Shown: positions 1 through 55,008 of the stretch, in pieces
Layout: every line of letters starts with the position of its first letter
Position numbering within the stretch: position 1 is the stretch's first letter
Assembly (NCBI GenBank): GCA_012295275.1
Contig: CM022668.1
Span: 248,001-312,000 of the forward strand
Source: Chrysomallon squamiferum
Lineage: Eukaryota > Animalia > Mollusca
Reading direction: 5' to 3'
Length of the DNA: 64,000 nucleotides
Notes under the pieces: model-generated
The model's input: the letters and a program-made list of their open reading frames with translations, nothing else
Databases searched by the model: none
What the model was told of the DNA's origin: nothing
Made by a program: the position numbers and the translations under genes

Positions 1-314
1 GAAATTTAAAACATAAAATAATAAATTAAATATTTTATCAGAATGAATATAGAAAATAAAGAATCAATTACCATTTTTCCAGGACAAATAGAGTCCCAGT
101 ATGACTGCACCAAGAAACAAGGGTATTAGAGACAGTCAAGGTATGCATATTATTAACAGATATTAAAATAAAATTAGACATTTTTGCCCCTTAACATCTG
201 TGACCACCCTTGACTTTTACTGTAATATTTATATTTTGTTTCAGTAATAACAAGAGGGTACCAACAGGACAAATGTACAAAAAAAGAAACAACAATGGAT
301 GCACTTCTGTATAC

Positions 315-29271: not shown

Positions 29272-29313
<42 letters not shown>

Positions 29314-29580
29314 CTAATACGTTGTCCGTACCACAGTTCACATGAAATGAAACAACGGTGAGCAAAGCTTATAAAGTTATATATATAAATATAGTATATT
29401 ATATTATATATACTATACAGTATTATACGTCTATACTACCTATAGACAGTATAGTATTATAGTGCTTACATTTTTATTTCATATGAACTGTGGTACGGCC
29501 AACGTATTAGAATAAAATGTTGTAAATTGTCACATACGTTTATATTCTGCCATTAGGCGCTTTAACGCAGAACCTGCCAT
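27586..29580 (-). CDS. UBE2G2: Ubiquitin-conjugating enzyme E2 G2 (Ubc7 ortholog, ERAD E2), complete, 165 aa
   Basis: Exons 29580-29538, 29028-28947, 28818-28700, 28343-28203 and 27698-27586 total 498 nt, all GT-AG. Protein reads [28 protein letters not shown]...[27 protein letters not shown]...[27 protein letters not shown]...KSLGL*, with the HPN motif, catalytic Cys and Ubc7 acidic loop. Confidence 0.97.
29312..29512. mobile_element. Foldback/MITE-like element with about 37-bp terminal inverted repeats in UBE2G2 intron 1
   Basis: ttctaatacgttgtccgtaccacagttcacatgaaat ... atttcatatgaactgtggtacggccaacgtattagaa (2 mismatches) around a TA-rich core, abutting a (GT)n run. Confidence 0.75.
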
Positions 29581-30550
29581 ATTTCTAAAGATTCTAACTA
29601 AGTTATATGACCGGATATATTTGTTATAGCTGTAAAATAGTCAGTTTCACTTTTTGGGCACAATGCATCAAACTTAAACAACGTTTATTTCCTTATACGC
29701 ATGCGCTCTCGATTAGTCTTGATCATAGTAAAACGTCTAAACGAGACTAAACTATGCATAGCTCATCAACCAATAAATCAATATTGAGTATTCTAACACA
29801 ACGCCTTAATGATATGTACTTAAAATCGATTTAGATAACTGATTTAAAATGTTTAGAGAATTGATTAGTTTATTAAAGGTAATTTTTAAAGGTTAAAATC
29901 AAAATCTATTATTATTATTATTTTCTTTGTTTTTGTTTTTCTTATTTTTCTTCTTCTTCTTTTATTTATTTATTTATTTATTTTTTTTTTTTTTAAATTA
30001 TAAAATATTATTCTTCAAACTGGTAGTTGGTATACGTACATGTATATGAAATACATAAGGTTTCCAGATCATAAGAAAACATTCTGGGCCTATGCCTTTA
30101 CGGTGTTTCCTAACCGTACGAAAATTGAAAAGCATACAAAGAAACAAACAAAAACTAAACTAGAATAATAATAACATTCCATCAAATCTACGTCAAATAT
30201 GGAACTATTATTTCTATTAATTTATTCAGCCGATATCTTGATATGGTTACCAATGATGTTAGACTTTCGCAGGCGCAATGTGGAGAACATCATATTAACC
30301 AAATTATGTTTAGATTATATCAGATGTATTTTGAGGTACCAGCTCTCTAGCGCCTAGCTTCATTAAGGGTTGTGGAACTGTTTTAATAATCGTATATATA
30401 TATATAATTTGAATCTTTATCTCTTAATTAAAATACAATAATGATTTTGCTGAACAAAAATTTTAATAGGACTGTAGGTGACATCACATACACACGGCAG
30501 AATTTATGACGTCATCAATTTACTTCTGCTCCACATGCACCAAAATAAAA
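29581..30550. promoter_or_regulatory. Head-to-head UBE2G2 / distal TOP2 promoter region
   Basis: NRF1-like TACGCATGCGC 29696-29706 and CGCAGGCGCA 30268-30277; palindromic CRE ATGACGTCAT 30506-30515; divergent ATGs at 29580 and 30551. Confidence 0.55.
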
Positions 30551-30563
30551 ATGCCTGCTAAAA
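30551..30563 (+). CDS. TOP2: Putative distal first coding micro-exon of TOP2 (MPAK, phase 1)
   Basis: aaaATGCCTGCTAAAA|GTAAGT is a consensus donor. It joins in frame to exon 32548 (MPAKKRAKMTQADLKWN) and to acceptor 32901 (MPAKRKMAAKGPLK). Confidence 0.55.
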
Positions 30564-31484
30564 GTAAGTCGTTTTTCACATAGCCAAATTAAGCTGAAAC
30601 GTCGATTTATGATGTCCTAATCTACAATATTAATTATTATTCAAAAATATTATTCAAACAGCTGGATTTTGTTGTGTTCTTTTGTCAGAATTCCTTGAAA
30701 ACTGTTGTTATTTTTCAGTTTATTTATGGTACATATGATACAGTGCTTATTTTTTGTTTTGTCTTTTTTGCTTTTGTTTGGTTTTGCTGTTTCTTCTTAT
30801 TTTATGTATTGTTGTGTTTTCCGTTGTCAGCCAATCTCTACACAATTAAACAATACCGTGCACGGACAAACTAGTCTGTAATTTGAAAAATTCGTACTTT
30901 CTGCCGTTACCCGACCGTCCCCGCGCCGTGCTAGCTTTGTCCGTCCGTTTTTAGGTATCCGAGAATACAAATTTTTAATAACTTTTTGCTTTTCTTTTTA
31001 ATTTCCCGGCGAAAAAATACGTTAAAATAAATAAATAAATCAGAAAGAAAACGAAAAATCAATCTGAAACGTAGATCTGGTATTATTTGTGTAAAGTTTA
31101 TCGATCGAACAGCTAGCTTCTAGAAAAGTTATCCCATTTGGCCGTATAAATCGATAAATTGTAAACAAACATGATTAATTCATGTGATCAAAGTACTGCC
31201 ATTTGATTGAATATTTATTTTTAATTTATGGATTAAAGTATGATGATTATATCTCTATATAATTAGCTATACCTTTATGTAAGATTGAATTGTAATCTCA
31301 AACAGTCATCTTGATATCCTGAAAAGTTCACTGTGATCTTGCTTTTTAAGGGAGATACGAGAATTTAATGAACTTCGGTAAGAGCACTTGCAGCAGCACT
31401 CTGAAATCACAGGATTTACCTGAAAATAAGATTGTCATTACTCCATTATCTTTCAAGTTACTAACATAAATATTTTAATGAACG

Positions 31485-31528
<44 letters not shown>

Positions 31529-32547
31529 GCTCTTTTCAGTTTTTCAGTGACTTTATTTTCAAATCAGCTTTACTAAAGGTTAGGTATTCCTATATTCGAA
31601 AAAGTATGAAGAAATTACTGTAAATAAACAAGAATGGAGGTGGCCGATATGTTCCAAGACAATTTGATGCTGGATATCATGAATATTTGGATGAAAATTT
31701 AAAATTTAAGTTAAATGTTCAAACTTCTTTAACGTTGTGTATTTGCATTAGCTAAAAATTTATCTCTTTTGTCTGTATTATTATTATTATTATTAAATAA
31801 AGTAATAGTGATCTCACAGAGTATAAATAAATAACAAAATAATAAAATAACGTTAAGTAATTACGAATCGGTGAATTGCGGTACTTTCGCAGGAACAAAA
31901 CTAGCCACACCGGATGTAATGCTTCCTATCTATGAAGCTAGTAACATTAGCGATTGGTTCAGCAAATAAATTTGCGAAACCGTTGCCCAATCAAATACAA
32001 CTTTATGTTTTCTGGCAATATGGCGCGTTATTATTGATCTACCGACAGACTCCTTATTTTCATAATTTTAAAAAAATTCTGTTATCTCTGCACAGTAAGT
32101 TTGTTCAGATCGAAAGATCGTTATATGATACGTATAATATAGCTGCAGCATCCTTATTTATGAATCCAGCATCAAATTTTTCTTCTTTTCCATGTTTGAA
32201 TCGTGAGGCATTTCATTGTCTCGTCTCAAGTCTGCTTTTCTTGGAACATTTTGACAATCCCTTTCAAGTTTCATTGTTTCAAAAATTATTGTTATGTATC
32301 TTAAGATATCTGCATTTAAATACATAGCTATTAAAACATTTTTTTTTAATGTCATCCCAATTTATTCGTTAACTTTGCAGCTAAAAACTGCATATTAATA
32401 ACTGATCGCTTACAGTTTGAGAAAATAGTACCGCGAGATCAGCTTGGAAAATTAAGGTTACTGATTACCGTGATTTTTGAACTTCATCTAGCGAATCTAA
32501 GTGATGTCTGATAGTAACTGATATTTCACAAATTTCGATTTTTGCAG

Positions 32548-32585
32548 AAAGGGCAAAGATGACTCAAGCGGACCTGAAATGGAAC
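32548..32585 (+). CDS. TOP2: TOP2 alternative N-terminal exon, TOP2B-like ((K)RAKMTQADLKWN)
   Basis: tttttgcag| acceptor, ATG at 32559, AAC|GTAAGT donor, phase 0 into exon 33529. Confidence 0.7.
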
Positions 32586-32669
32586 GTAAGTGTATTTATT
32601 TTATTTGTATTTTATTATTATTATTATTATTTTTTTTCTTTTTTTATTATTATTTTTTTTTTTTTTACT

Positions 32670-32800
32670 CTTAAGCGCGTGTGGATACCACGTGGTCTTA
32701 ATAGTTGTGTGTCGTGTCGTGAGATTGGTCAGGGTACGTGTCAGTACAGTTTTCTCGTTTTTGATTGGTCTAAAATGCCGGGCAAATTTTAAAATGAATA
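32670..32800 (+). promoter_or_regulatory. Cell-cycle-type proximal TOP2 promoter (E-box, two inverted CCAAT boxes, CDE/CHR-like)
   Basis: CACGTG 32689-32694, GATTGGTC at 32723 and 32763, then GCCGGGC-aaat-TTTAAA 32777-32793, about 110 bp upstream of ATG 32906. Confidence 0.6.
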
Positions 32801-32905
32801 TTTTTGTTATCCTGCATGAATCGACCTGCAGTATTGTGATAATGTTTAATTAAGAAGTATTTTACGTACATCTTTATTGTGTAATAGACTTCATTGTTAG
32901 GAAAA

Positions 32906-35900
32906 ATGGCTGCCAAAGGGCCACTAAAAGTAAGTGAAACCAGTTTTGTTCATTTACTAGATTTAGAGTTTTGAAATCCCATTATAATCTAGAATGTTAA
33001 TGTTTAAATTTATTAAGATAAACTACTTAAATATTAATAATAACCAAATAATAGTCACAACAGTGAGTGTACAGTTAATTCAAATATTTAATGGCTGTAT
33101 ATTTTTTATCTCAGTTATTGTTTTTAGTTCATGGTTTTAATTGTTTATCATCTGTTTTAATAGATTAGGAAATGAATTTCAAAAATCCAACTGACCAATT
33201 TTATTTTTATGCTGAGAAAAAAAAGGAAACGTGCACAATTCAATTCAGTGATTATACTGAGAGAAAAGCAATGGATTGGTGACACTCTAGAACCCAGTTA
33301 GCTTTATTTACAAGGAAAAAAGAACATGTACACCAAATTAAAATTATAGACTTAGTTTACAGCGTTTTAAAATTGTTTAATCATTTGTAATGTATATTGG
33401 TCATTGGGTGGTTGTGTTATCAGATCACCTCATTGCTAAAAAGTAATTGTAATGTAGTAGTGATATCTGCATTAATCATTTTATTTTATTTTAAATTTAA
33501 CATTCAGTTTATATTTTTTGTTTCCTAGGCAATGTTTGAAAACATGCAGGCCAAGACAGACAAGGCAATACAGAAGTCAAAGCTGACAGAGTCTGGTAAT
33601 GATTTCTTGGACCATGCTGATGCTGGTGATGCAAAGCCAAAAGGAGGAAGTAAACAAGGGAAGAAGTTGTCAGTGGAGAGGATTTACCAGAAGAAAACAC
33701 AATTAGAACACATTCTTCTCAGACCTGACACTTATATTGGATCAGTGGAGGCCGTCACACAGGTATACCTATCATTTGAGAAATACTGACTTGATCGTGC
33801 AAAGCGACACAGAAAATGTTTCAGTATGAGATAATCTCAGACAGCTAAATTTTCTGTATTTTTAAAATTAAAATAAGGAGTAATATAAAATAATAAAATA
33901 AAAACAAGTAGCATACCTTGACTTACTAGTTTTCAGAGTTAAAGGTAGTCACCCAGTCGATTTTTTGCTTTGAATTGTAAGCCCAAATCTGAGTTACAAG
34001 CTAGTTGGCACAATGAACAACTGGACATCCACCCAGCATCCAGCATCTCACTTGTTTGCTTCACGTTACGTCTCCACTGAAGCAACTCTGTTCTGTTGTG
34101 CTCACATTTTTTGCAGTTTCGTGCAAAAATTTCTTTTTTTTCATGTTACCAGTCTTCAAAAGTGCAGAATTGACAAACTCTCTTAGATTATTTGCTAAAA
34201 AGTGCCGTTAGTATTTATTTTTTAATGCTAAAAAATACTGTTAGCTTGACAAACTGAAGCCTGCAGATGACAGTAATTATAGACAGATTTGAGGTGATGT
34301 TGTAATAATTAACATGTTTTGATAATTTTGGCAAATGGGGATGGATATTTTTTAATTTTGGGCACATGGCAGGCTCCAAAAAGAGGCTGCTATCCTATTC
34401 CTGCATAGGGGAGACATTAAACATAAAATGTTTTCTATCATATTATAAAGAAGCAGTGTGTATTGTTTTTTAATTAAAGTTTGGAGTAATATAAAATGTT
34501 TTCTATCATATAAACATACAGCTTTCTGTGTTTTGAAACAGAATTTGTTTTTAATTACTGTTATATTATTTCTTTCTTTTATTAACAGCAAATGTGGGTG
34601 ATGGATGAGGATAAGGAGAACATGATTCTGAGAGAAATCACATTCGTGCCTGGTCTCTACAAAATATTTGATGAAATTCTTGGTGAATTGTCCTTATTTA
34701 TCCTAGATATTTAAATTTATCTTCATAATTACAGCAGGTGCTTACAACATGCAGGCATATAAATGATTCAGATGTATAATGAAAAATATATGAATTGTGT
34801 GTTCTTAAAATCTAGTCTAAGAAGTTTGCAGATATAAGCACCATAATATAATGTATTTAGAAAACCTGCTAATTATTTCTGAAAACTTTTCAGTTCTCCC
34901 AAAAATTTGTTAGTCAGTTTGTAAATATATTCTTTTTATTTTGTAGTAAATGCTGCAGATAATAAGCAGAGAGATCCTAGCATGAACTGCATAAAAATTG
35001 ATGTAGATGCGTAAGTGATTGGTTTTTCTATTTGACATAACTTGTTATAGATAGTATTCTTTTTTAGCAGTTATTTGAATGGATAATTTCATGAATGAAT
35101 GTAGATCTTCTCAAATGTTAAGCTTTAATTGTTTAAATCCAATTGGCTTTGCCTTTAACTTTAAATAAATCAACAAAGCTTTTATTTTTATTTTTTATTA
35201 TTATCAATATCATATTTAAATATTTATTATCAATATTACATTTTAAATTTATTGTTTTCTGTACAAATTATTAAATACACTTTTATTTTCTTTATTACTT
35301 TGTAGAGAAAATAATAAGATAAAAATCTGGAACAATGGTAAAGGCATTCCTGTGGTTGAACACAAAACAGAAAAGATGTATGTACCTACAATGATTTTTG
35401 GACACCTTCTGACATCCAGTAACTACGATGACTCAGAAAGGAAGGTTACAGGTATACAATTATTCACATCTGTTTGTAAATTAAAATTATAATTTCTAAC
35501 AACAAAATAAAAAGTGAAAAAAGATAATACTAAAGAAAATGAAATAACTTTGGCAAAAGAAAAGGTAAATTTGCCTGAAATTCAGGTAGACTGATGTTTT
35601 GTTGTAATGTTATTACAGTGATTTGTTTTTTGTTTGTTTTCTTTTTCTATTTAGTGTCTCTTGTATTGGCTACCAGCAGCATAACCGATACAATTGGTCG
35701 AAACTGTTAAAAGTTCAGATTTTGTCCATTTTCCTCCACTCCCAAATCCCTTCTATAAACCCTACCATAAAAAACAAATACATGTAACTGAAGAGTTCTT
35801 TGTATGAGTGTTAAATGTGGTGGGGAGTAAACACACTTCTGTGCCCGTGGTCAGCAATTAACAGCGTTGAATGTAAAGTCCTAAAATAGGATTGCTGTAC

Positions 35901-38900
35901 AAACACCTGGATTGTTTTCACAAAAATGGCTTCATAGTTTTTTTAGCACCACTGGGAGGGTCAAAGTTCAATCTTTCTAACCGCGCGCGTATCATTGCTG
36001 GCAATGACTTCTATCAAAAGTTGTGTCCAAAAATGTACTTTTTCATGCCTTCAAACCAATTTTGAAAAAAATGGCTGTTCACAGGATCAAATGAAAGATC
36101 ATTCAATTATCTTTTGAACAATGTGCAAAAAGAAGCTCTGCATTTGAAAGTAGCACGTGCTTAGCAAAATCACCATTATGTTACATTTTCGACAGAACGA
36201 AATCACTGTAGATTTTATGTACAGCTAGAAAGGTTTGGAACTGTTTAAAATGATTATATTTATATGTTGTTTATATTTTTAATAACTTGTTGGCTGCTTG
36301 TTTTTCTTGAATGTTCCTACTTTTTGCGTATACATTATAGCATGTGGGTAGTGAAATCACGTTGTGAAATAAACAATTAAATTGTTTTGCCAATTACTAT
36401 CTTCCGTTTAAAGCCATTTTGCTTTCAAAATTCTTCTGATAAACAGGGAATTAAGAATCATAAACATAACAAACTATACTACATAATAGAACAATGTATT
36501 CAGGGGTATTGATGGAATGCTGAATAAAAATCTAATCACTTTTTTAAAAATATAAAGGTCAGATGATAGGTAACTTTTGTTTGCTGTCAAATGATTATAT
36601 ACATTTTATTAATACCCGCAACAACTTTCTGGAGTTGACTCGAAGGATTAGCTGAGTTTATGTATTGCAAAGGATTATGGTTAAATATCAAATGCTTGTA
36701 GACCTTTTAAGTAACATTTACATATATATGATATATACACATCACAGTATCTTAACCTACCAATTATTTAATAGAGTGAGAATTGAAGCTACTTATGTAA
36801 ATACGGTTGTGCTGTTCTATATAAATTGAAACGGTAATTTTTGTTATGGGCTTGGCAGAAATTTTGTTTAATTAAAAATGTTAGATTCAAGTATGTCGTT
36901 TGAAAGATCTTGATAAATTGTTCACAGCACAGGTTGAATTTGTCAAATAAGACAAAAGCTGAAACCACAGTGTCTGTTTGAACTTTTATTCATTCTGCCA
37001 TGTGTCATTTTGAAAATGTTGGCATGTTTAGCATTTTATTGTGAACACATACAAACATACAGGTCTGAAAAAAATTGAGCTCATTTAGCAAGTTGGTCCC
37101 ATCATTCTTGTTGATTTTCAGCCTTTTGTGTCAATTACTTTTCAAACTACAGTTGATCAAAGTAGTCCTTTCTGCTAATTAGCCAAAATAGGGCTGAAAA
37201 CCGACCAAATACTTGTCATACTAATTTGCAAATATCTTTTGAACCCTTGGAGATAGTCATAATTTTTGGTGTGTTTTCATTCTTTTTGCTACAGCTTTCA
37301 TTATGTGCTATTTTTTTTTTGTGTGCATATTATGTGAAATTAAAGTCAGAAAAAATTTGGCTGTCAGTACCTACTTGTATATATTTTTGTTTGTTTTCAG
37401 GTGGTAGAAATGGCTATGGTGCAAAACTTTGCAACATTTTCAGTAGCAAGTTCATTGTTGAAACATCATGCAAGGAATATCATAAATGTTTTAAACAGGT
37501 GATAACATTAATCTCTTCAGTTGCAGTATTATAATTTATTTTAAATGTTAACATTAAAGGTATGCGAATCATTAGCAGTAATAATGAAATATAATACTGA
37601 TGTAATTTTGTGCTGAGGCATTGTCAAACAATTTATTTAGCAGTTCTAGAATTTATTTATTTGAATTATTAATATTTGGTTTTATGACAAATATTTGTAT
37701 ATTAAAGTTTTGTTAGAAGAAGACATAAGACATTTACAACTGACATGTATTCAAGTACTTCAGGGTTCTTTGATTGAAGATGCCCTTATCTTTGGGTTAT
37801 TAGGTCCTGTGTCCCCTTATGGCCGTGCTTAGTATACTGATTTAAAATAGTCATTTTATCTTATGCATGTTCTTAACTTGTTCAAAATGGCTTATACAAA
37901 ACCCACAACTGATAGGCTGAGAGGATAGACATCAGTATGCTTGTAGCACTGTTCTGAATTCTGAAATGGATCTGCCCAAGGATTTTGGTACAGAACAGTA
38001 ATTCTTATTTTCAGTCTTCATAACTTTAATTAACTATACTATTTTTATTTTTATTTTCTAGACGTGGGCTAATAACATGGGGAGAACAAAAGAGCCAACT
38101 ATTGGAGACAGTAAAGAAAATGATTTCACATGTGTGACATTTTTTCCTGATCTAGACAAGTTCAAAATGACCTGTTTAGACAAAGATACAGTGGCTTTGT
38201 TTTCTCGTAGAGCATATGATATTGCAGCCACAACAAAAGGTGTTAAAGTTTTTCTGAATGGAAAAAGGTTACCAGTATGTAATCATTGTTTGTATTATTA
38301 TTTAAATTTTTAAATTTTTGTTGTGGTTAGTTCTAATGGATTTATTTACAGGTATATTTATAAATTAATTAAAAATTGTGTTACTATGTTATATTGTTTT
38401 AATTATTAACTTCAAAAGTGAAGAAAAGTTCATAAAGTTATTTGGCTGATAAATTCTTTAATATTGAATCTGCTATGTAATTGATGTTAATAATAAAGAA
38501 ATGTTTTAATTAGTAGAATTAAAAAGTTTGATACATAATGCATTACAAAATTATTATTCATTTTATTAACAGAATAATTAAGTTAAAACAAATGTATTTT
38601 TCAGGTGAAAAATTTCAAAGACTATGTAGATCTTTACATAAAGAACAAGACAGACGAAGCAGGAGCACCTTTAAAACTTGTTCATGAATGTCCCAATGAG
38701 AGGTGGGAGGTGGCTGTAACGCTTAGTGACAAGGGCTTCCAGCAGGCGAGTTTTGTAAACAGCATAGCTACAACAAAGGTATATTATACATAATATACAA
38801 TACTTTATTATAATTGAAAATCTGCTGCAAAATATATTTCTAGAAGTTCTGAATCGTATCACAATTTTTATCCATAATGATGTTGAAAAATGAACAACCT

Positions 38901-41708
38901 CAATAAAAATATTTAAAAATAAAAAAACTATTTTTATTTTTTTAAACTGATCAGTTTTATCACAAGTTTATAAAAATTTTAATGATCCTGCATTACTGTT
39001 TGAGCAGAAAACCTTTTGAATTTTCTTATTGAATATTGATTTTTCGTTAATACTGTTAAAATGAATAATACTAGGTTTATTGATTTATCCATTTATCTTC
39101 TCTTTATTGAATTGAATGTTTTTGTTTTATAATTGTGTAGCATCCTCTTCTTAATGCTTGAAACTGGTCTTTTATTTTGTTAATAATCTGTGTAATCACA
39201 GGTTTTATATAATCATGTTTATTAACATTGTCTGAATTCTTATGTCAGTGTTTGTTTTCTGTCAGGGTGGACGTCATGTAGACTATGTATGTGACCAACT
39301 TGTCACCAAGCTAATAGAAATTGTGAAAAAGAAAAACAAAGGTGGGGTGAACATCAAACCATTTCAGGTGAGTAAAATCAACTTTTGAAATTTAAATTCA
39401 GACCAGAGTTAATTAACACTTTTGGTGTCATTGGTGTGATATGACAAATTATAAGACTGCTGTTAGCAAAAATATCTCAACATACAGCATTAGTTTAAAT
39501 AAGCCTTAATATTTCACTTTGGTCATTTATCCCAAACATGGCATGAGAATTATGTGTTGTACCAAAGCTTGGTGCTATTAGATGAGATTAATAGTTTTAC
39601 CTCTTATAAGAGTATAACTATTTTGTTTCTTTAGTGAGATGTGCATTGTGCTGAAAAAAATAAGGTCAGAAATGGTACACTGTTTAATTTCAGGTGAAAA
39701 GTCACATGTGGATATTTGTCAACTGTTTGATAGAAAACCCAACATTTGACTCACAGACCAAGGAAAACATGACACTGCAAGCAAAGACTTTTGGTTCTAA
39801 GTGTCACCTCTCCGAAAAGTTCATAACACAGGTAAATTTATGTTTTCTATTTTGCTTGTCTGAACAGAAAACTAAAACTAAATGAAAATATCGGTGATTT
39901 GAAAAAAATTCTTTCTGGATTTTACATACAGTCATTGTTATCAGTAAAGGACTAGATTTTTTTAATTTTAATTAAGATATGTAATCCATATATCGGATTT
40001 TTCAGTTATTGTCATAGATTTTATTGATGCCATGATCTTTACCTATTAATATCTATCTCTTTATCATGTTCTTTTTCCAAAGTATTTTAATTTTTCATTT
40101 TCAGAATTATATAGAGCTACAAAAGTAAGCAAGATAACTTGCTGACTGCACCTAAGATGATTCTCTTCAGGAAATCAGATTTTTATCATTATGATCTTGT
40201 TTTATTATTATATTTTTTTATATATATATATATATATATAGAAATCATGATTTAAAATTCATTATCTAGGTCAGTAAATGTGGCATCATTGAGAGCATCA
40301 TCAGCTGGATGAAATTCAAGGCACAGGCACAGCTCAACAAGAAGTGCCATGCATCAAAACACTCCAAGCTGAGGGGTATACCCAAACTGGATGATGCTAA
40401 TGATGCAGGGACAAAGAACTCTCCATATTGCACTCTGATTCTAACAGAGGGAGATTCAGCTAAGACACTGGCTGTGGCAGGGCTGGGAGTTGTAGGGCGT
40501 GACCGGTATGGTGTGTTCCCTCTCAGGGGAAAGGTCCTCAATGTACGAGAAGCAAGCCATAAACAGGTACACTGTACTCATTTTTCTCTTTTATGTTGTC
40601 TATTGACTTGCTTTTTTGTTTTTCCTTTATAATCTACGTTCTTTTGTTCTCCAAACTTTTACATTCAGTGTTTGTCTTAGTTTTGTTTATACCTTTTATT
40701 TTAAAACTATTTCGCTCTGTTTCAGTCAGTGACTGAATGCATATCTCTATTTTGCTGTCCCAGTCCATACATCTCTTGTTCTCACTCTTTTCATGCTTCC
40801 ACAGAATGACTTAATTTGAAAATGTCTGTTAACACACAGATCATGGATAATGCTGAGATTAACAACATTGTTAAAATCATGGGACTGCAGTTCAAGGAGA
40901 AGTACGAATCACCTGAATCAATTCGGTCTCTGCGATACGGTAAAATCATGATCATGACTGATCAGGATCAGGATGGATCTCACATTAAAGGTCTCCTCAT
41001 CAACTTCATCCACCACTTCTGGCCCAATCTGCTCAAGCACAACGTTGTGGAGCAGTTCATCACACCTATCGTCAAGGTGATAGAATCATTCAGTTTATTA
41101 AGCTATATTAACTAAGCTTGGCATAAAACTCTATGAAATTTTTGTTTTGATTCTATAACATTCAGGTTAATATTAGAATTTTTTAAAAAGAAATAATGTT
41201 CAATTACTCACCACTTCATAATCTGTATTGGTTTTGTTTCATTCTTAAAATACATTCCAGCATTCATTCAAATTCTTTTCTGATAATCTGTATTTGAGCA
41301 TTGCAGCTTTAATTTTTTTTCTCTTCATAGATGATATGACTAATATTTATTTTCTTTATCTTTTTTGTTAAGTACATTGAATCTTTTTCAGTTTTAGTAT
41401 TTGTCATCATTAATTTCCAACAAATGAGAAAATAACCAATTGCATTTTGATAGGGGTTGTCTGTCTTACTCTCTCTTTTTTTTTCATTTTCTTTGTCTGT
41501 AAGACATGTTTTAAAACTTTTTTTTAACCCCAGGTGTCTAAAGGTAAACAAGAACATGCATTTTACAGCATGCCTGAGTTTGAGGAGTGGAAAAACAACA
41601 CAGACAACTGGCACACATGGAAAGTAAAGTACTACAAAGGTGTTTATTTTTTATTTTCTAAATATTTACTTGTGTGCACCTCCAGTTAACATGGGGATAC
41701 ATGCATAC

Positions 41709-41768
<60 letters not shown>

Positions 41769-44700
41769 ATGTATGTATGTACCTAATTGATTATTCCTGT
41801 TATTTCAGATTTATTACTAATAATTAAAATAGGAATGTGCTTGTTTGTAATTGAAATGTCTCTGTAATCTATAATAATAAAAACAACAATAAATAAATGA
41901 AAATAAAAATACAAATATTAATTATAATTTAATAATTAAGAAAAAAACAGGGTGGTTCTGTATTTCAAAATTGGATTTTAAAAAAAGGGTTAAAAGAAAA
42001 AGGATAATTTAAATATAATATATGATTTGAAATTAAACAGTAACAAACACCATGAATAATAAGAGAAAAATTGTTTGTGTTTTAGGTTTGGGAACCAGCA
42101 CAGCAAAGGAAGCCAAGGAATATTTCTCTGATATGGATCGACACAGAATATTGTTCAAGTATGCAGGTGCAGAAGATGACTCATCAATTCAGTTGGCATT
42201 CAGTAAAAAGAAGATAGAAGAAAGGAAGGAGTGGTTGACTAACTGGATGGAAGACAGAAAAAGACGAACAGAGATGGGACTTCCAGAGGTAAATAAATCT
42301 TTCTAATGAGTACTGAAATAACATTTGAAAATTAAGAAGAATTTTGTTTTTAAAATTTACCTGTTTAGGTAGGTGGGTGTGTGTGTGTGTGTAAAGCCAT
42401 GTTTTTATAATCTATCTCTGATTATCTAAATAGTTATATGTTAGGCTGTATTTCTATGATCTGTGTATGTGTTAGTATGTTAAGCCCTGGTTTTAGCATC
42501 TTTCTGTATCTCTGTTTATCAGCTAAGGAGATAAAAATTATGCATGAAGATTTTATTTATAAACTTATTTTTAATGTTTACCTTCTAGTGAATAAATTCA
42601 TCTGTATTAAAAGGAATGCATTTTATCTAAAAGACACATTTGATATAAATGTAATATTTGTTTTGTTGTTGCCTCATTTACAAAATATTGTGTGCAAAAA
42701 AATATTATAATTATTGTCGTTTCATGACAACTATATAAAAACTATTTTTGTATTTCCAGATTTACTTGTATGGAAAGGAAACCAAGCGGGTCGTCTTTAA
42801 TGAGTTCATCAACCGTGAATTGATTCTTTTCAGCAACATGGACAATGTCAGGTCGATTCCATCACTTGTTGATGGCTTCAAACCAGGTCAGAGGAAGGTC
42901 ATCTTTGCCTGTTTCAAGAGAAATCTCATCAAGGAAATCAAAGTGGCACAACTTGCTGGTTCTGTGTCAGAAATTTCAGCCTACCATCATGGCGAGGTAA
43001 TTTAGATATTTGTTTCTGAGTTTCTCAAGGCTAAATTTAGTAAATGGAACATTCTTCAGTTTTATAATGTAAAATAGCTGTCTACAGAGCCACAAGAACA
43101 CTTTAACATTATTTTTAAAAATCTATATTTGGAAGTATTGAATATTTTTACTTTCAGGTTTCCTTGATGGGTACAATTATCAACTTGGCTCAGAATTTTG
43201 TTGGTTCCAACAACTTGAACTTGCTGCTTCCCATTGGTCAGTTTGGTACTCGTCTCCATGGTGGCAAGGATGCAGCCAGTCCAAGATATATCTTCACTGC
43301 TCTGAGGTAAGTTATTACCAGATAATTCACAAATATGTTCTGCTAATGATTTGAATTCTTTGCAACTTAACAACCTGTCAGTGCTTTTAATATCACTATC
43401 TATGAGTCAGTATAACTGAATTTTGACTGGGAAAGAGTGGAGTGTTTTTAAATTATTTTTGTTTTGTTTCTCAGTCGACTGACTCGCCTTATATTCAATA
43501 ACCATGATGATCCATTGCTGAAACCCAACTACGATGACAGCATGAAGGTTGAGCCTGAGTGGTACTGTCCCATCCTTCCCATGGTCCTTGTGAATGGTGC
43601 TGAGGGAATTGGCACAGGCTGGAGTACAAAGATACCAAATTATGATATCCGGGAAATTGTAGCAAACCTCAAACGACTGCTGGATGGGCTGGACCCATTA
43701 CCAATGGTATGAAAACATTAAACTGGCTAAATGATAACACATCTTCTGGCTTCTTTTCTTGTGGAAATCTCTGATCAAGATGTTTAAATGCCATTCGTGT
43801 TAAATTTAAACATTTTGAAAATTGGTAAAATATAGTTATAATAACTTAATAACAATGTCATGTGTATTATTCCAGTGGATACATAGAGAAAAGTTTAAGA
43901 AATGTATTCAAAACATATTTAAAATTTGTTCTTAACACTCACTTAAAGATTGACAATAATTTGAAAGTTTTTTATTCTATTTTATACACTCAAAAACAAT
44001 TAATTATATTTCTAATGTTTAGTATTCATTATATTTGATTTGCTATTAGCACACCTGCTCATTTTGGACTAAAGCATCAAATATTCTTGCTCTGTGAAAT
44101 TTATTATTTATATTAATCAGATCCCATCATACAAGAATTTCAAGGGAACTATCGAGGAGTTGTCAGAAAATCGTTATGTTGTCAGTGGTGAAATCTCCAT
44201 CATTGATGACAACACCATAGAAATCTCTGAGTTGCCAATAAGAACGTGGACACAAAACTACAAGGAAGAAGTGTTGGAACCAATGTTACATGGAACTGAT
44301 AAAACTCCAGCTATTATCACGTTAGTAGAAAACAGTTTTAATATTTCTGCTGGATAACATGTGGATAAAGTAAACAGTTGATTATAATTATTGTTGATAA
44401 ATCAGTTTTTATAGTTTTAATTATTAAATCATATATTGCATTGTAGATTATATATCAGCATTCCAGTTAACTTTGAGAAGAAATGTTAATTAGGTTTGTA
44501 ATGTATTATGAATATTATAAAATGGAATGCTAACTGAGGTGTGAAAAAAAGAAAGAAACTTGCAATTTATAAAATAAAAAATCTGTTTTATTCATGGAAG
44601 CCAAATGATTTATGGATTATATACTGTATGACACAGTTAATAATGAATTGTTTATAGAGATTACAAGGAGTACCACACAGATACAACTGTCAAATTTGTT

Positions 44701-47700
44701 GTGAAGATGGATGCAGAGAAAATGGCAGCTGCTGAACAGACAGGATTACACAAAGTTTTCAAACTGCAGACAACAATCTCTACAAACAGCATGGTGTGTT
44801 GTTCTTTACATATTTAGAAGTTGTTGCACAAACTTGCCAGAAAAAGCGAGCTAAATGTAATTTCTGGCTTTTAACAATGAAATGATTGGTTTGTTACTAA
44901 CTTTCTTTGTTGTTTATGAAAGTTGAAATTGCTGAGGAGATTTTCTTATTTATTTCATTTTTCTGTTTATAAAACTGAGCTATTCTGATAGAGTAGAAGT
45001 TTCTTTTAGGGGACTAAATTACTCTTTGAGTTTCCTAAGATAATCAGTTTTTTAAATGTGCATGTTCTTTATTTGTTAGAAATTATTTGCCCATAATGAT
45101 TAAAAATATAAGGATAATTGTTTTAAAAAACTTCAGTATGTTTTCTGTTGTATACTAAAGTTAATGCAAAAGAAGTAATTTATAGACATTATTTGTGTTT
45201 AGGTTCTGTTTGATCACAATGGTTGTATACGCAAGTTCAGTGTGGTGGAAGAGATATTGAAGGAGTTTTTTGAGGTTCGACTAGACATGTATAAAAAGAG
45301 AAAGGCATATCTAGATGGCATGCTTGCTGCAGAATCACTCAAGATGGACAATATTGCCCGCTTCATCCTCGAAAAGATTGAAGGAACAATAGTCATTGGT
45401 GAGTTGACATGACTAATACTTTCTGAGAAAGTCAGTAGTTTTTACAGACAGCAAAATATATGTAAAAATAATTACAAACAAAATTTCAACTGCTGTTGGT
45501 GGAAAAATATTTCTTAATAAAATATGTTAATCAATGGGATTTATGGGAAGAGCATGGAGGCAAACCAGATAGGGTAGCCACAGTGTTTTATTGCTATGGA
45601 GATCGTCTAAATTTTAAGGCACTAAGGCAAGTACAGAAGGAAGCCATGGCACTTACCGTCGGTGCTTTGGTAAAATTTGAAGCCTATATATAGTATCAGC
45701 GACCTAATTAACACTACTTAATGACTATGAAACATGGATATGTTTTACATTTTTCGGACTTTTAGTGTACATATAATATAACCAGCCTGTGCGTGGCAAA
45801 ATTGCCATAAATTCTGTTTATTAGTTGGCCAAGTTGCTGTAAATTTTATGTGCAATGTGAAAGGATTTGCACTGTTTAAAATGACTATATGTTTATATTC
45901 TTAATAAGTTGGTTGCTTGTTTTTTGTCTTTGTTCACTTTTAGTGTGTGTGTGTGTGTATAAATATATTACATAAGTACCTCGAAGTATATTAAAGAATT
46001 AATGGTAATAAGTTTAAAAAAAGATACTGTGATATGTGTGTGTATATATATATATATATATATAAATGTTACTTAAAAGGACTACAATCATTTGATGTTT
46101 ATAATCACCTGCAATACATAAACTAAGTTAATCCTTACACCATACTCATTTGAAGACGAAAGGCAAAGTTTTCTCAGCTTTGTATTTGGTGTGGTTTGAC
46201 TGCAAACAAAAGTTACCTATCATATGACTATTGTTGATATTTTTTTCTGATGGAGCTAATCAACACTTGAAGCAAACATAATCTAAATTTTAATACTAAT
46301 CAATACATCATAATGTTGTGTTGTATAGTTTGGTTATGTTTATGATTCTTAATTTGCCCTTATAACAAGAATTTTGATAATAACCAGAAGACAGTAATTG
46401 GCATATCACGAAGTTGAATCTTTTAAGAACATAATTATACACACATACACACACAAACATTGGTCTTAATTTTTATGTAATAAAACTTTGATGTACCTTC
46501 ATAGATTTGGCCTTCATTCTTGGGAAATATTTAAATTTTATTATTATATTTAAAAAAAAAAACAATTTTTATGGATGAAAGTTTGTGTGTCTGAGAAAAT
46601 ATAGGAAATTTTAAAATTGTTTTAAACAGAAAACAAACAGAAGAAGGATATCATTCAGATGTTAGTGCGAAAAGGGTATGAGTCAGATCCAGTCAAAGCC
46701 TGGAAAGACTCGCAGAGTAAAGACAAGGTAAAATTATTTTCATTTACATTTCTCATAGTTAAATTTAGCTGCAATGTGGGTATCAGCAGCCTAGCTGATA
46801 TAATTGGTCAAACTTAAAAGTTCAGATTTTGTCCATTTTCCTCCACTCCCAAATCTCTTCTGTAAAACATACCATAAAAACAAAATACATGGAAATGCAG
46901 ATCATTATGTGCTTTTTAAAAGGTGATATTGTTTTTATTGTGTGTTAAACCAGTTCTTTGTATGGTCAGCAATTACCAGCGTGGAATAAAAGGTCCTAAA
47001 ATATAGGGTAGCTATACAAATATCTGGCTTGTCTTCGCAAAAATGGCTTCAATGTTATTTTTAGCATAGCTAGGAGGGTCAAAGTTCGATTTTTCTAACA
47101 GTGTCCATGCCGTTCCTGGCATTGGTTAATATCAAAAGTTGTGTCCAAGAATGTACTTTCTCTTTCCTTCAAACCAGTTCTAAAATAAAAAAAAATTTCA
47201 CATTTTATGTGAAATTAAAGTCAGAAAAATTTTGCCTGCCGATACCTATTTATAGGAGTAGTTTTGACAAACAAATTATTTGAACATTTTCTGTACCATT
47301 CCTTCATTTAACTTGCACTAGTTATGCTGATTCCCACCATACCTTTCACAAATGCTGGGGAGACCATTGTTTGCCGTAGAGACAGTTTAGTTTATTCCGG
47401 TGTAAGCATTAACTTTTAATGTAAAATATTGTTCAGTCATGAGTAAAATATGCCAATATGTTTTTACAATATGATGTTTTTTTTCAGTTTTCTATTCAAA
47501 TATAGTTACAGTGGTTAATTATTATGTATACTCTTCAAATATTACGCACTATGAAGCAGAGTTTAACAATATTATTCCTGCTTTGTCATTCAACAGTTTG
47601 GTCTAGTTGATATTAGGTCAGGTGTAGTAAGTTCTAAGACATACTAGTCTAGTAATTAAAAAAATTAACGTTGAACCCTGCAATGTCCAGAAATTAATTC

Positions 47701-50700
47701 TCTGTGTTATATTTTCTCAGAATGTTGATGATGATGATGATGATGATGGTGATACTGAAAGTTCAGCATCAACTAGTGGTGGCCCTGACTTCAACTACAT
47801 TCTTAGTATGCCACTGTGGAACCTCACAAAAGAGAAGAAAGATGAACTGTGTAAACAAAGAGATGCTAAGGTCACTATTTTGCTTTTTAACTATTTTTAT
47901 TCCTGTTAAGTCACAGTTAACAAAATGATGCCATGGTGAATATTTTATTATTTCAAATATTTTCATTATTATTAAAACAAAATAAAACAGTATTTATATT
48001 TACAGTTTTATTTCTTATTTTAACTGTTTTCATTATTGTAAAGATGAGATATGCTAAAGGAATTGTATTAATATATGTACTATTTCAAATTTAATAAAAT
48101 GTTATGAAGTATTATATATTTTAATTTCTTATATCAGTGTTACATTCCTTGATTTATTAATATGATTGACAGTGTGCATTGCAGTCTACTTGCAAATATT
48201 TTAACAGCCTACTGAAGTGGTTAATACAAGTTATTAGACAGAATCTTCATTCAGCTGTGTAAAATAAAATAAAATTACACTTCAGGCAAAGGAACTCCAA
48301 ATTCTTCGTAGTAAGACATACTGTGACTTGTGGAAAGAAGATCTGGAGGAATTCCTCAAAATACTTGATGTGAGTTCGACAGTCTGATTAAATAGTCTAA
48401 TAAATTCTTATATACTTCCAAGTTATTGTTTTATTGTTCAGGGCAGTATGTTAGTACTTGTACCAAAGTACGACAGTAAAATAAAACTGTTGTAAAAAAA
48501 ATTTGAATGCTACTATTTTATCTCTTCTCAAACAGAACTTGTAAGGTGGTTGTTGCATAGTAGACTGATAGATAAAACTTTACAGCGAATTGGTCCATCA
48601 TGCTTGTGCAGTGATGTCATTAAAAACAGCAGTGCCAAGTTATTTTTAAATTACTTACTTGTTACCTTTCAGAATGAACATTATTATCATTAACAACATT
48701 ATTGTTATTATTGTCGTCATCATCATTATTATTCAGGAAGTTGAACAACAAGAGAGAGATGACAACATAGTAAATTTTAAGTCAAAGGTATTGAAGGGTA
48801 AATCAGGAAAGCCTCGTAAGATTGTGGAGGAAGTTTTACCGTCACCACTGGGAACCCGAGTTGAGCCAAGAATTGACTCCAGTATGAAGATCAAAGCAGA
48901 GAAAGATGCAGCAAAGAAGCTGAAAAAGATTACTGTTAAGTTTTTGTTTGTTTGTTTGGTGTTTGTTTTTTTAGTTTATTTATTTAAAAGAATGATACCT
49001 AAACATTTCTGTGTCTGAGAAATTATAGGAAATAGTAAAATATATTTATGCTAAATGAAGAAATCTATTTTCAGAATATTGGTTCCATAATGCTCTGGGA
49101 AAATTGGGCTATCTGACAGTGTGCAGAATTTTGAATTTCAATGGAGTTTACCAGAAACATGCATCAAAAATAAAACCTGGAAATAAACATAGAAATTGAC
49201 TAAAATGTGTAAATTTCAGTGACACCTCACAAAATGCATTTTTTTTGGAACATAATAAAATTTATTTGGGCTTTTTAAGTTGTATGAATAGAAAGCTGAA
49301 TAATTTTTCTAAATGGTTGTGTCAAAATCTCAACAATGATTTTTTTGTTTTCAAAGTTTGTCATTTTTCAACCAGCATGTCACTTTAAATCATGCCTAGT
49401 GGCTCAAATGTTTTGTTTTGCTGTTTTGTTAAACATTCATGTATGTTTAGCTATATAGTATTAATAAAAATAATTTGTTATTATTTGTGTTGTATATTCA
49501 GTGTAAGAAGGAGTTGAAAATGGATACAGACACTGGAGATGGACAGACACTGGATTCCGATTGCATTAAGAACGAGAACATCAAACAAGAAAATGGCAAT
49601 GACGAGCCAAAAAGTCTCACAGAGCGTTTAGCTGCTGCTGGAAAGAAAACTACTTTACCCAAAACATCAGCTCCTGCAAAAGGTGTCGGTACTTTCTGTT
49701 TTTTTATGATTATTATATTATTAATTTATTAAATTTACAATATATGGAAATGTGCAGCGTTTATTCAAAATGATATATGAGAAATACTAAGAGTTCACCA
49801 TCCTGTGAATGATGACAGAAAATTAATCAAATTACAATAGTGATCTTTTTTAAAACAAACAAATTTAGATATTTGCAATAATAAATATATCTCTTTATAT
49901 GTAATTTTTTATTTTAAAGAAAAGAAAAGTAATTATTTTGTTTAAAACATTTAGAATAGATACAGAGATTAAAAATGATGGCCTGTTGTTACAGGTCGCA
50001 AACCGAAGGCAACTTCTCCGTTGACCAAGAAGAAGAAGAAAAAGAGATTTGACTCTGATGTGTCGATCAGTGCCAGTGACATGTCTGATCTGGAAAATGG
50101 GGATGATAGCTTTGCATCAAACGCACGTCGAGAAAGAGACATTCCACGAAGAGCTGCAGGTATTCTATTTGTCACCCTTTGAGTGTGTGTATGAACATTT
50201 GTGTGTTAAAGTAAGTGCCGGCAGCCTAGCCGATATAATTGGTCAGACTTAAAAGTTCAGATTGTGTCCATTTTCCTCCACTCCCAAATTCCTTCTATAA
50301 AACATACCATAAAAACCAAATGCACGGAGACAGTGTTCTTTTTATTGTTTGTTAAACCAGTCCTCTGCACGAAAGTTAAACATGGTGGGGATAAATGCAC
50401 TTTGGTGTGCGTGGTCATCAATTAACAGCATGGAATAAAAAGTCCTAAAATAGGGTCGCTCTACAAAGTCCTGGCTTGTCTGCAAAAATGGCATCAATAT
50501 TATTTTTAGCACAGTTGAGAGGGTCAAAGTTCAGTCTTTCTAACAGTGTGCATGTTGTCGCTGGCAATGGTTTGTATCAAAAGTTGTGTCCAAGAATGTA
50601 CTTTCTCTTTCCTTCAAACCAGTTCTAAAAGAAAGAAAGGCTGAAAATAAAACCTACATTCGCTCATTAAATTACCTTTCAAACAACATGCGACACATTG

Positions 50701-53700
50701 GTGTGCCTTCTTTGGCATAGAGAAGCTCCACATTTGAAAGTAGTGCGTGGTTAGCAAAATTGCTATCAAATGACGTTTTCTTCCATTCTGAAACCAAGAA
50801 AAAAGAAAACCTCGCAGAAGAGACCAGTATTTGTCGATTCTGATGAGTCGGATGATAGTTTTGTTACAAAAAAATACCGAAATCACCATAGATTTTATGT
50901 ACAGCTGGAAAGGTCTGGGGCTGTTTAAAAAGATTATATTTATATGGTGTTTATATTTTTAATAACTTGTTGCCTGTATGGTTTTCTTCAATGTTCCTAC
51001 TTTTAGCATATGGGTCATTCCATGTCAAATCGCCCCCCCAAAAAAAGAAATTTAAACCCGACCGTCTCAGATTTTTATGAAACTTGGTATACTTGTTGAC
51101 TGGGATCCCACAGCACCAAATCTGAAATTTTAGCTCAATCAGACCAGTGTTGTGGGAGATACGGCCCACTGAATTTTGAGATTTTTGCCAAAAATGGGTG
51201 TGACCACCAACCTTAGAACCCTCATATCTCAGGAACTTTTATATGTTTTAGTTAACATGTGGGAGATTAAATTTCAATAAAGGTCATCTCAAGATCATGT
51301 GATCCACACGGTCAATTTCAAGGTCATAGCAAAGGTCAAAAGGTCAAGGTACTCCAATATTTTCCAAACTAAACAAAAATGGCAGATTTGGAATCCTTGT
51401 CATTTTGCCTTTCTAACAATACCAGTTTTATGAAGATTGGCCCAGTTGTTCCTGAGATATGAGGGTTCTAAGGTTGGTGGTCACACCCATTTTTGGCAAA
51501 AATCTCAAAATTCGGTGGGCCGTATCTCCCACAACACTGGTCTGATTGAGCTAAAATTTCAGATTTGGTGCTGTGGGATCCCAGTCAACAAGTATACCAA
51601 GTTTCATAAAAATCTGAGACGGTCGGGTTTAAACCATTGGGTGATTTGACACGGAATGACCCATATACATTATAGCACATGCATAGCAAAATCACTGTAA
51701 ATTGTTTCCTACCTGGCGAAATCACTGTGGATTTCATGTGCAGCTAAAAAGTATTGGTGCTGTATTATATTTTTAATAACTTGTAGGATGCATATTTTTT
51801 TATATGTTATGACTTTCACTGAATATAATATGAATACATTCTGAAATAAATGAATTAACATTGTGTTTTGCCGATTACTATCTTCTGTTCTGAAACAGTC
51901 AATTATTTTGCTTTCAAAATTCTTGCGATATACAGCGAATTAAGAATTGTAAACATAACAAACTATATTCTATAACAGAACAGTGTATTCAGAGATATTG
52001 ATGGAATGCTGAATAAAAAACTAATCACTTTTTTTAATATCATAAAATCATCAGTTTTAAAACAGATTATTTTTGCTTGTTGATAAGCTCTCTCAGAAAA
52101 TTTCAACAATGGTCAGATGATAGGTAACTTGTGTTTGCTGTCAAATCACAGCAAGTACAAAGCTAAGAAAATTATTTAATCTGCTTCAAATGACAGACTT
52201 ACCACACCTGTGTCTTTAATGGCATCTAGTCTCATGATTACATACATTTTATTGTCACTGATTAATAGCTGCAACACCTTTCTGGAGTAGACTTCATTAT
52301 TAGCTGAGTTTATGTATTGCAGAGGATTATAGTTCAACATCAAATGTTTGTAATCCTTTTAACAATTATATATTTATATATATATATATATGTGTGATAT
52401 CTACACATCACAGTATCGTAGCTTATTACTTATAATTATTTAATAAATAAAGTGAAAATTCAAGCTGCTTATGTAAATAAAGTTGTGCTGTTCTACATAA
52501 AGGTGTTTAACCCATATCAGTTAGGGTTCTTTGTTGATTTTCTTTTAATTGGCTGCTCTTCAAACTGTAAACAACAATAAATAAATTTTAAATTATAATT
52601 AATTCTTGCTGAAACTACCCAGACTTGTTTTCTCAATGTTTTGAGGCTTACAGTGCCAAAACATATATCATTGCTGTGGACTGAACTGTGCACTAACTCA
52701 CATTTTTACTTCAAAATTGAAAAGATAATTTTGTTTATTAAAAATGTATGTCATTTGAAAGATCTTGACAAATTGTCCACCAAACTGGTTGAATTTTTCA
52801 AATAAGACCAAAACTGAAATCACAGTGTATGTTCGCACTTTTACTCATTTTAGGAGCATTCTGCCTCATCATTTTGAAAATTTTGGCATGTTTAGCATAT
52901 TATTGTGAATACAAATACAAACATACAGGTCTGAAAAAAATTGACTTGATTTAACAACTGGTCCTAGCACTGTTTTTGATTTTAAGTCTTTTGTATCGGT
53001 TTTGTTTCAAACTACACTTGGCCAACGTTGCCCTTACTGATGATGTGCCAAAATATGGTTGAAAACGGACCAAATATCTGTTGCTTTCATTTTGTGCTAA
53101 TGTTCTTGCATATTATATGAATCTGAAGTGACTTTTCTGCTGTTGCACATATTTGAAGAGAGAGCCATTCTATAAAGATAATTTGTCTATGAATATGTCA
53201 GTGTGTGAATTTTTGTTTCATTTCTTATACATCTCAAACCCATTCTGTAAAAAGCTGCATGTGTATGTCAGTCTGTGGGTTTGAAATTTTATTTCCACAC
53301 ACCTCAAAGCTATTTAGTAAAACACTCTAGATAGATACTATGTTTCTGTATGAGTGTGTTTCTACAAGTTTAATATCTGATCTGTTATATGTATCAAGGA
53401 AATTCCATTACAAAAAGAGATGTTTGAAAAGCACTGAAAAGAGAAGTTTGTGGTTTGTTGTTTATATACAGTTTGTTTTAAATATTTATGTGTTAGTGAT
53501 ATTATTTTGTATATGTTTATTATCTATGTAGATGGAAATGTTTATCTACTGATGAAATCTTAATGTTTTGTATATTGTTTCTGTTTTAATATTTAGCTGC
53601 TGCTAAAGTGAAGTATGCTGACTCGGATGATGAAGAAATTAGGTCAGAATCAGAGATGTCATTTAAACCAGTTGAATCTGATTTAGAAACTGAGAGTGTG

Positions 53701-55008
53701 GTGTTAAATCCTCCTTCAGTCAGGTAAGTGTGGATATAAAAAAAAAAAAAACTGATGTGTGATGTTCTGTTGTCACAAATGTGAAATAAATTAACGTTGA
53801 AAGATCCTTATTAATTATTATTTTTAATATATTTTTATTAATAAGCAGAATGTTGACTGGAGTCTGGAATCACCAAAATCTAAAAAAATATCATTGTTGT
53901 CTTATTAACAAGGTTGTTACTGTTGTTAGATATAATGCTGACAGGTCTGCAGTGGCCAGACAGCCAGAGAGAGTACCCAGTCCTGTTATCACAGCTGACT
54001 TCTCTGATGCTGACAGTGATGATGGTGACTTCTCTATGAAGACATTCCCCACATCCACTGTGTCACAACCATCCGGTAAACATTAGAAAAGTTTAATAAT
54101 ACTGATATAAAAACTATTTTATAGACTACATTGTCTGTGTGAGTGTGTGTGTGTGTGTCTACAGCCAGCAAGAGATAAAATATACATACAGATACGCATA
54201 TATGTATATTACTTATATTGTCATGTTAATTTTGATCTTTATGCTAATTTAATCAACAGTCAGCATTTTTACAGTAAAAAAGGTATGGAATTTCCAAAGC
54301 CTTGTTTTATTTATAAAATTAAACTTTTAATGTTTTGGATTTTAACAACTTAATTTTCATTACAGTAAATTCTCAACCAGTAACTTTTGATAGCAGTAAT
54401 GATGATGACAGTGATGAAAATGATGTAGGTAAATACACTCCAAGTTATAAAGAACCAGTAAAACCTAAACTAGTGGGAAAGAAGACAAAGAAACCTTCAG
54501 CTCCTAGGAAGATTAAAAAAGGTTTGGTTTTTATTATCATATGTGATTTTTGTAAAAATTAATATCTTGTCAGAAAAATAACCATTTGGGAATGAGTCCA
54601 TGTTATTAATACTATTGTTATTTCTTGTTCGTTTATTTTATTTTATTTTATTTTATTTTTATACCAATGATGCCCACTTGTTTATTTACTTCTTAAATAA
54701 AAATATATATATTTTTTATTATTATTATTATATTCTTTTTTCCTGAATTCCTTTTTTTTTTTCCACTATACTTTTTAGTTGATCCCAAACAACCATCCAT
54801 TTCGGCAATGTTCTCAAAACCAGTTGCTAAGACAGCCAAAACAAGTAAATTAAAATCTTGGGTTCAGTTAGAGGTGTCTGATGATGATGATGATGATGAT
54901 TTTGGTTATAATGATGGTGACAATGATGTCATTAACTTATCAGGTTTGTCCCAACCCCGACCTTTGAATGATTTTTTGTAATACTGGAGATTTTCTTCTT
55001 CTTCTTCT

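Follow-up and report, generated by a model that had tools for sequence, protein, structure and literature searches.

Two first coding exons at the TOP2 locus

We analysed a stretch of 64,000 nucleotides of the Chrysomallon squamiferum genome (GenBank assembly GCA_012295275.1, contig CM022668.1, positions 248,001 to 312,000), hereafter the window, which carries a type IIA topoisomerase (TOP2) gene with two short coding exons, A and B, ahead of its common part (Table 1). The full coding chain of the enzyme was recovered by tblastn, and 922 of 1000 core residues are identical to those of Gigantopelta aegis, the nearest named relative and its sister among the gastropods in our tree. The Gigantopelta protein in turn matches human TOP2B and TOP2A in the PDB, in alignments that stop short of the human N-termini.

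Exon A consists of nine codons, from an ATG at 32559 to a final L-K-W-N, followed by a GTAAGT donor at 32586; exon B has eight, ending in G-P-L-K, with a GTAAGT donor at 32930. Both can be joined in phase 0 to an exon with acceptor AG at 33527-33528, which opens with the conserved motif x-[LM]-F-[DE]-N. An earlier note on this DNA, made from the sequence alone, had proposed these coordinates, donors and joints, all of which hold. It had also claimed that including both exons gives a stop, and this is confirmed: when exon A is joined to the possible acceptor of exon B at 32901, a stop follows at codon 18. Immediately before exon A, an AG (32546-32547) is a possible acceptor from an upstream untranslated exon. 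Taken from the sequence alone, the feature is weak, as an in-frame ATG mini-frame lies upstream of 7 of the 36 GTAAGT sites in the window (5 of 34 if exons A and B are left out); its reality is confirmed by RNA and by relatives. Aligned with each other, the two exon types share L-[KQR], the type of exon A being two residues longer. Because both align on this motif, A and B may be an ancient tandem duplicate.

Table 1. Features of the TOP2 locus (window positions)
Feature	Position	Strand	Basis
Exon A, W-type (TOP2B-like) first coding exon	32548..32585	+	sequence, RNA, Gigantopelta isoform X1 ortholog
Exon B, coding part, P-type (TOP2A-like) first coding exon	32906..32929	+	RNA joint, Gigantopelta isoform X2
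Shared second coding exon	33529..33762	+	phase 0, leads into ATPase domain
TOP2 gene body	33529..54943	+	29 tblastn segments of the Gigantopelta protein, residues 9-1553 (last exon outside mapped part)
Candidate upstream mini-exon	30551..30563	+	unsupported; in frame on paper only
Likely internal promoter of exon B	32689..32793	+	motif scan; putative function
CpG non-depleted stretch over both first exons	30300..33000		CpG observed/expected

Both junctions predicted by the earlier note are found in RNA from four sequencing runs (X1-X4). A GT..AG joint from 32929 to 33529 is present in X1 and X2 (contig depths 38.5 and 59.2), and in X3 and X4 a loose end of 29 nt before 33529 is identical, compared by eye, to 32557-32585, the 3' end of exon A. 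Since X1 and X2 carry the B joint and X3 and X4 the end of exon A, both splice forms exist. The runs differ in the form assembled (B in two of four, A in the other two), although they are tissue-unlabelled and contigs lose rare forms; seven loose ends and nine pieces lie outside the display, and the lack of exon B coverage in X3 and X4 is not to be read as absence. Intronic contigs at depth 2-5 reveal that unspliced RNA is present in these runs, and hence the upstream extent of the X1 and X2 contigs gives no firm indication of the start site. As a side observation, short intronic repeats at 33956-34119 match many unrelated RNA contigs at 90-95%.

The X1 and X2 contigs continue unspliced through 32901 to 32670, the edge of the stretch compared. 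Exon B is hence not a 29-nt internal micro-exon, and no entry into it from an upstream exon through its own acceptor was found. Of the "two micro-exons" in the earlier note, the coding parts stand, while exon B as a 29-nt internal exon does not, the acceptor at 32901 being unused in X1 and X2. The same note let the feature begin at 30551, where an ATG plus 10 nt precedes a GTAAGT at 30564; this start found no support. One could suppose that A and B are mutually exclusive internal micro-exons behind a common coding exon at 30551-30563, and the candidate acceptors at 32548 and 32901, both in phase 1, fit this on paper. We consider it highly improbable, given that RNA contigs cross 32901 unspliced, that orthologous proteins (including those of Gigantopelta) begin at the methionine of A or B instead, and that most other loci have, by eye, no clear acceptor before the P-exon ATG.

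Upstream of exon A lies another possible exon, at 31892-32094 (+), with an acceptor-like site near 31891, CCAAT at 31953 and 31987, and a GTAAGT donor at 32095. A frame of 54 codons that starts with an ATG at 31932 encodes no acidic residues and would splice in frame to exon A. Basic N-terminal extensions are found on the W-type proteins of Physella and Elysia chlorotica, as well as on Priapulus and Phallusia proteins, and resemble mitochondrial targeting peptides.

Both N-termini in one invertebrate gene, one in each fish paralog

Relatives were gathered with the shared exon alone, so that neither mini-exon was in the query, and from three cluster look-ups (30 proteins). At one and the same junction, two types of N-terminus are seen: P-L-[KR] or L-x-W-x, each followed by x-L-F-[DE]-N. 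Both are annotated as isoforms of one gene in 12 invertebrate species: the gastropods Gigantopelta aegis (X1 = A, X2 = B), Haliotis asinina, H. rufescens, Pomacea canaliculata (with P-F-K) and Littorina saxatilis; the mussels Mytilus galloprovincialis, M. trossulus and M. californianus; and the deuterostomes Asterias rubens, A. amurensis, Apostichopus japonicus (with A-L-K) and Branchiostoma lanceolatum, the assignment in H. rufescens and the three Mytilus species coming from isoform names and shared contigs. For 8 of these 12 species the isoform pairs were compared, and they match at 1000 of 1000 downstream positions. In Ruditapes the P form is accompanied by a diverged alternative that lacks Trp. 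An outgroup gene that branches outside the TOP2A and TOP2B clade thus makes both isoforms, as seen in RNA for the window gene and in annotation for the 12 species. The earlier note's expectation that both exons are conserved is borne out in related and distant species alike, and neither a single junction nor a lack of conservation in relatives was found.

We also examined the order of the exons in genomic DNA, using 80 loci from metagenome contigs, of which 24 were translated and 8 searched for mini-exons. Locus L029 has a W-type exon (5463-5504) followed by a P exon (5665-5682); the bivalve-like L001 has a Ruditapes-like diverged first exon (5178-5213) followed by a P exon (5502-5528); and L002 has a W exon and a second exon of non-P type. 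Loci with two exons keep the order of the window. Within the contig DNA available, L004, L005 and L007 have the P exon only; no P exon was found in L024, which has the W exon only, and no mini-exon was found in the scan of L059. A sponge or cnidarian origin of L029 was not supported by a FastTree tree, and because this locus groups with lophotrochozoans, there is no evidence for the pair older than Bilateria. In L002, a G-P-L-K-coding 12-mer without ATG or donor (718-729, found by eye) lies just upstream of the differing second exon (790-819). It may be the remnant of a P exon that a new one has replaced, or a chance match.

In a quick IQ-TREE tree of 45 rows, with vertebrates represented by fish alone, fish TOP2A and fish TOP2B are each monophyletic and form a joint clade outside all invertebrates (SH-aLRT 100); the window TOP2 branches outside this clade. 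Fish proteins of more than 1000 residues were sorted into paralogs on 380 core residues alone, with a score cut-off of 0.80 that leaves out partial or divergent models such as P0016 (146 rows becoming 141 for TOP2A, and 57 becoming 56 for TOP2B). Of the 141 TOP2A rows, 117 start with Met, with 107 P, no W and 10 neither; the other 24 include one P and no W. Among the 56 TOP2B rows, 54 start with Met (51 W, no P, 3 neither), and the TOP2B rows from the query holding neither exon gave 30 W and no P out of 34. In ray-finned fish protein records, each paralog thus carries one isoform, reciprocally. Macaque and seal TOP2B fragments are also of W type, and one bird-like open reading frame (ORF), P0540, carries S-P-A-P-L-R, the sole P-type candidate retrieved among vertebrates other than fish.

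Searching 50% representatives with a profile yielded, for the most part, exon fragments from genomic DNA, which inform on intron position and not on dating. The x-L-F-[DE]-N motif occurs in 29 of 150 representatives, and in 20 of these 29 read-through ORFs it is directly preceded by Gln, assigned by eye to fish-A-like, B-like and invertebrate-like sequences. In human TOP2B, splicing takes place after Val23 and either includes or omits TLFDQ (PMC9592559, in the part available). As the Gln reads as a CAG acceptor, we infer the same phase-0 intron in all groups.

Because invertebrate genes hold the pair and each fish paralog a single type, the vertebrate duplication likely split two existing versions. 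TOP2B would have kept the W exon and TOP2A the P exon, by reciprocal loss after duplication. That the alpha- and beta-like N-termini predate this duplication, as the earlier note had suggested, is hence supported. We regard it as quite probable that the window gene has two alternative first coding exons, W upstream and P downstream, that this pair goes back to the ancestor shared by molluscs and deuterostomes, and that it was divided between the paralogs of vertebrates. If instead the short motifs arose by convergence or chance, the vertebrate first exons would not descend from A and B. The conserved residues number only 3-4 per exon, and the earlier note itself worried that the similarity rests on very few residues; this worry is eased by fish TOP2A, which keeps (G/E/S)-P-L-K and then x-L-F-E-N almost unchanged. 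Such convergence would also be easier to entertain because the human TOP2A start was not among the sequences retrieved and because cyclostome paralogs, outside the present sample, have been reported as a separate branch (PMC10081982). Yet both motifs stand at the same junction in lophotrochozoans, echinoderms and amphioxus, they are split without crossover between the fish paralogs, and the downstream motif and inferred intron phase agree, making convergence improbable.

In 13 of 140 P-type rows, from amphioxus, Saccoglossus, horseshoe crabs, Mytilus, Octopus and Erpetoichthys, P-L-[KR] is preceded by Ser, giving S-P-x-K/R, a CDK site consensus. Human TOP2A is phosphorylated at S4, according to the accessible text of PMC9592559.

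The proposed promoter of exon B and the making of two forms

The DNA between the exons contains an E-box (32689), a pair of inverted CCAAT boxes spaced by 40 nt (32724 and 32764) and, downstream of these, TTTAAA (32788), a listed CHR (cell cycle genes homology region) variant (PMC4176359). A CCAAT pair with a CHR-like hexamer appeared in 1 of 2000 shuffles of 32670-32905, and occurs in one further place in the window. For human TOP2A, five CCAAT boxes (PMC1885802) and a CHR close to the start (PMC4176359) are described in the available portions of these papers. Eight regions upstream of the second exon, or after the first donor, were scanned in the window and other loci. They hold 9 E2F-type motifs against 0.84 expected, in 6 of the 8 regions, with two regions scoring one double site twice, and a mild rise in CCAAT (9 against 4.8) and CHR (13 against 8.9). 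Five regions upstream of the first exon hold 2 E2F-type motifs against 0.6 expected. In the window, as in L001 and L024, the E-box comes first, followed by CCAAT and then by E2F or CHR.

Both first exons also lie in DNA that is not depleted of CpG. The CpG observed/expected ratio is 1.05 in 30300-33500, compared with 0.25 in 1-28000 and 0.31 in 33500-60000; CpG is non-depleted from about 28000 to 33000, and the ratio falls to 0.2 from 33000, just past exon B. This stretch is likely an unmethylated promoter zone common to TOP2 and a divergent ubiquitin-conjugating enzyme gene. The latter, which lies head to head with TOP2 at 27699-29580 (-) with its ATG at 29580, has a Pfam UQ_con match and is presumably UBE2G2-like.

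How might the two forms be made? The P exon would be a first exon whose own promoter lies in the DNA between the two exons and contains CCAAT, E2F and CHR-type elements, and the P form may be made in cycling cells through this cell-cycle-controlled downstream promoter. For the W form we propose transcription from a promoter further upstream and a role in non-dividing cells. A transcript begun at the internal promoter would lack exon A, and one from upstream would be spliced from donor A past exon B. We propose that the forms are exclusive because the choice of start site either excludes exon A or skips exon B; promoter choice is a more likely source of exclusivity than the frameshift.

The exons could also be ancient and partitioned as proposed, but transcribed in invertebrates from a single promoter as one long first exon with alternative 5' splice sites; TOP2A would then have come under cell-cycle control later. 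This would suit the X1 and X2 contigs, which extend without a break from exon B across the proposed promoter in the direction of exon A. Unspliced RNA in these runs, seen as low-depth intronic contigs, would be another source of such continuity, and in distant animals the DNA between the exons is where E2F and CCAAT motifs cluster. Under this reading, the ATG of exon A would furthermore start an upstream frame of 77 codons that stops 137 nt ahead of the B donor. A long upstream frame leads to poor translation of a downstream start and is a likely trigger of decay. We therefore think a single promoter unlikely, if less so than convergence.

Several observations nevertheless weigh against the inherited pair of first exons with separate promoters. 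The RNA comes from one study without tissue identity, with contigs compared over 32670-35100 only, and the X1 and X2 contigs cross the proposed promoter, as pre-mRNA or a longer first exon would. TTTAAA is common (160 in the window), no E2F consensus was found in the window's own region or in L007, and because motifs and regions were picked after viewing the sequences, the promoter evidence is only suggestive. In the listed records, only the P form appears in sea urchins, Crassostrea, Saccoglossus, Solemya, Octopus and horseshoe crabs (Limulus), only the W form in Physella, Elysia, Plakobranchus, Lingula, Holothuria, Ridgeia and Argonauta, and neither in spiders, Phallusia, Tigriopus and Patella, with no W form seen in any ecdysozoan. 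Annotation gaps and true losses are indistinguishable from these records. On the vertebrate side, the TOP2A set comprises ray-finned fish only, with many near-identical kin, so its rows are not independent; its P count is favoured, since the search query held E-P-L-R; and no named cyclostome, shark or mammalian TOP2A was among the proteins retrieved.

The two proteins differ only in their first 8-9 residues, within the flexible N-terminal strap, and the main difference between A and B is hence probably regulatory. The conservation of these residues suggests that they may matter. In human TOP2B, the whole strap lowers ATPase activity to 36-46% (PMC9592559, available part). For a P form (P0299) and a W form (P0004), the modelled structures show only a low-confidence helix after the junction, with pLDDT below 50 for residues 1-59 and 1-18, respectively, and are therefore uninformative on docking. 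Going a step further, there is perhaps an even chance that the ancestor ran a proliferation TOP2 (E2F/NF-Y/CHR, P start) and a housekeeping or post-mitotic TOP2 (W start) from one locus, with the junction motif (L or W)-x-x-L-F-[DE]-N being functional and tuning enzyme or partners differently in each form.

Other features of the window, known systems and significance

In the C-terminal domain, a frame-preserving exon of 165 nt (54779-54943, +) carries Q-P-S-I-x-x-x-F, which we take to resemble a PCNA-binding (PIP) box. Its counterpart is present or skipped across isoforms in Gigantopelta, Haliotis, Littorina, Crassostrea and Ruditapes; in Littorina its presence or skipping occurs in all four combinations with the two first exons. 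A similar motif is found in S. purpuratus TOP2, and none in the 18 fish TOP2A/B checked. At the other end of the window, an exon at 241-786 (-) had no Pfam match and resembles the N-terminal region of a MAP3K12/13 (DLK) kinase.

The vertebrate TOP2A/TOP2B pair belongs to the same enzyme family as the window gene, which differs in holding both N-termini; the paralog-specific C-terminal domains are not explained by the first exons. TOP2A is tied to proliferation, with CCAAT boxes and a CHR (PMC1885802, PMC4176359), and TOP2B is needed in post-mitotic cells (PMC9592559), in the portions of these papers available.

Isoform partition between paralogs is a known evolutionary process, of which TOP2 would be a further case. 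As proposed for TOP2, SKI7/HBS1 was one ancestral gene with two products, one kept by each paralog (PMC3597508, PMC6143672). In the accessible text, its products differ functionally by complementation, whereas the TOP2 forms are set apart by 8-9 residues, and what was divided is likely their promoters. FoxP likewise had an alternative exon pair from early Bilateria, with vertebrate paralogs keeping one (PMC3002244). Those exons are internal, lie in the DNA-binding domain, and are both kept by FoxP1, as far as that source was available, whereas no fish TOP2 paralog examined kept both. We found no report of two TOP2 first exons in the literature searched, where most subscription papers were out of reach, and the main text of PMC4417111 does not mention TOP2. 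The isoforms are already in public annotations as X1 and X2, without comment.

TOP2A and TOP2B are major drug targets, and their specialisation has been attributed to the jawed-vertebrate duplication (PMC12897701, PMC10341724, available parts). The N-terminal strap is called unconserved and is absent from ATPase-domain structures, according to the accessible text of PMC9592559; our finding points to a conserved motif within this region. If first exons and promoters both predate the duplication, then the duplication fixed a split that already existed, and the needs of the proliferative and of the post-mitotic programme could be tested directly in invertebrates with one gene.

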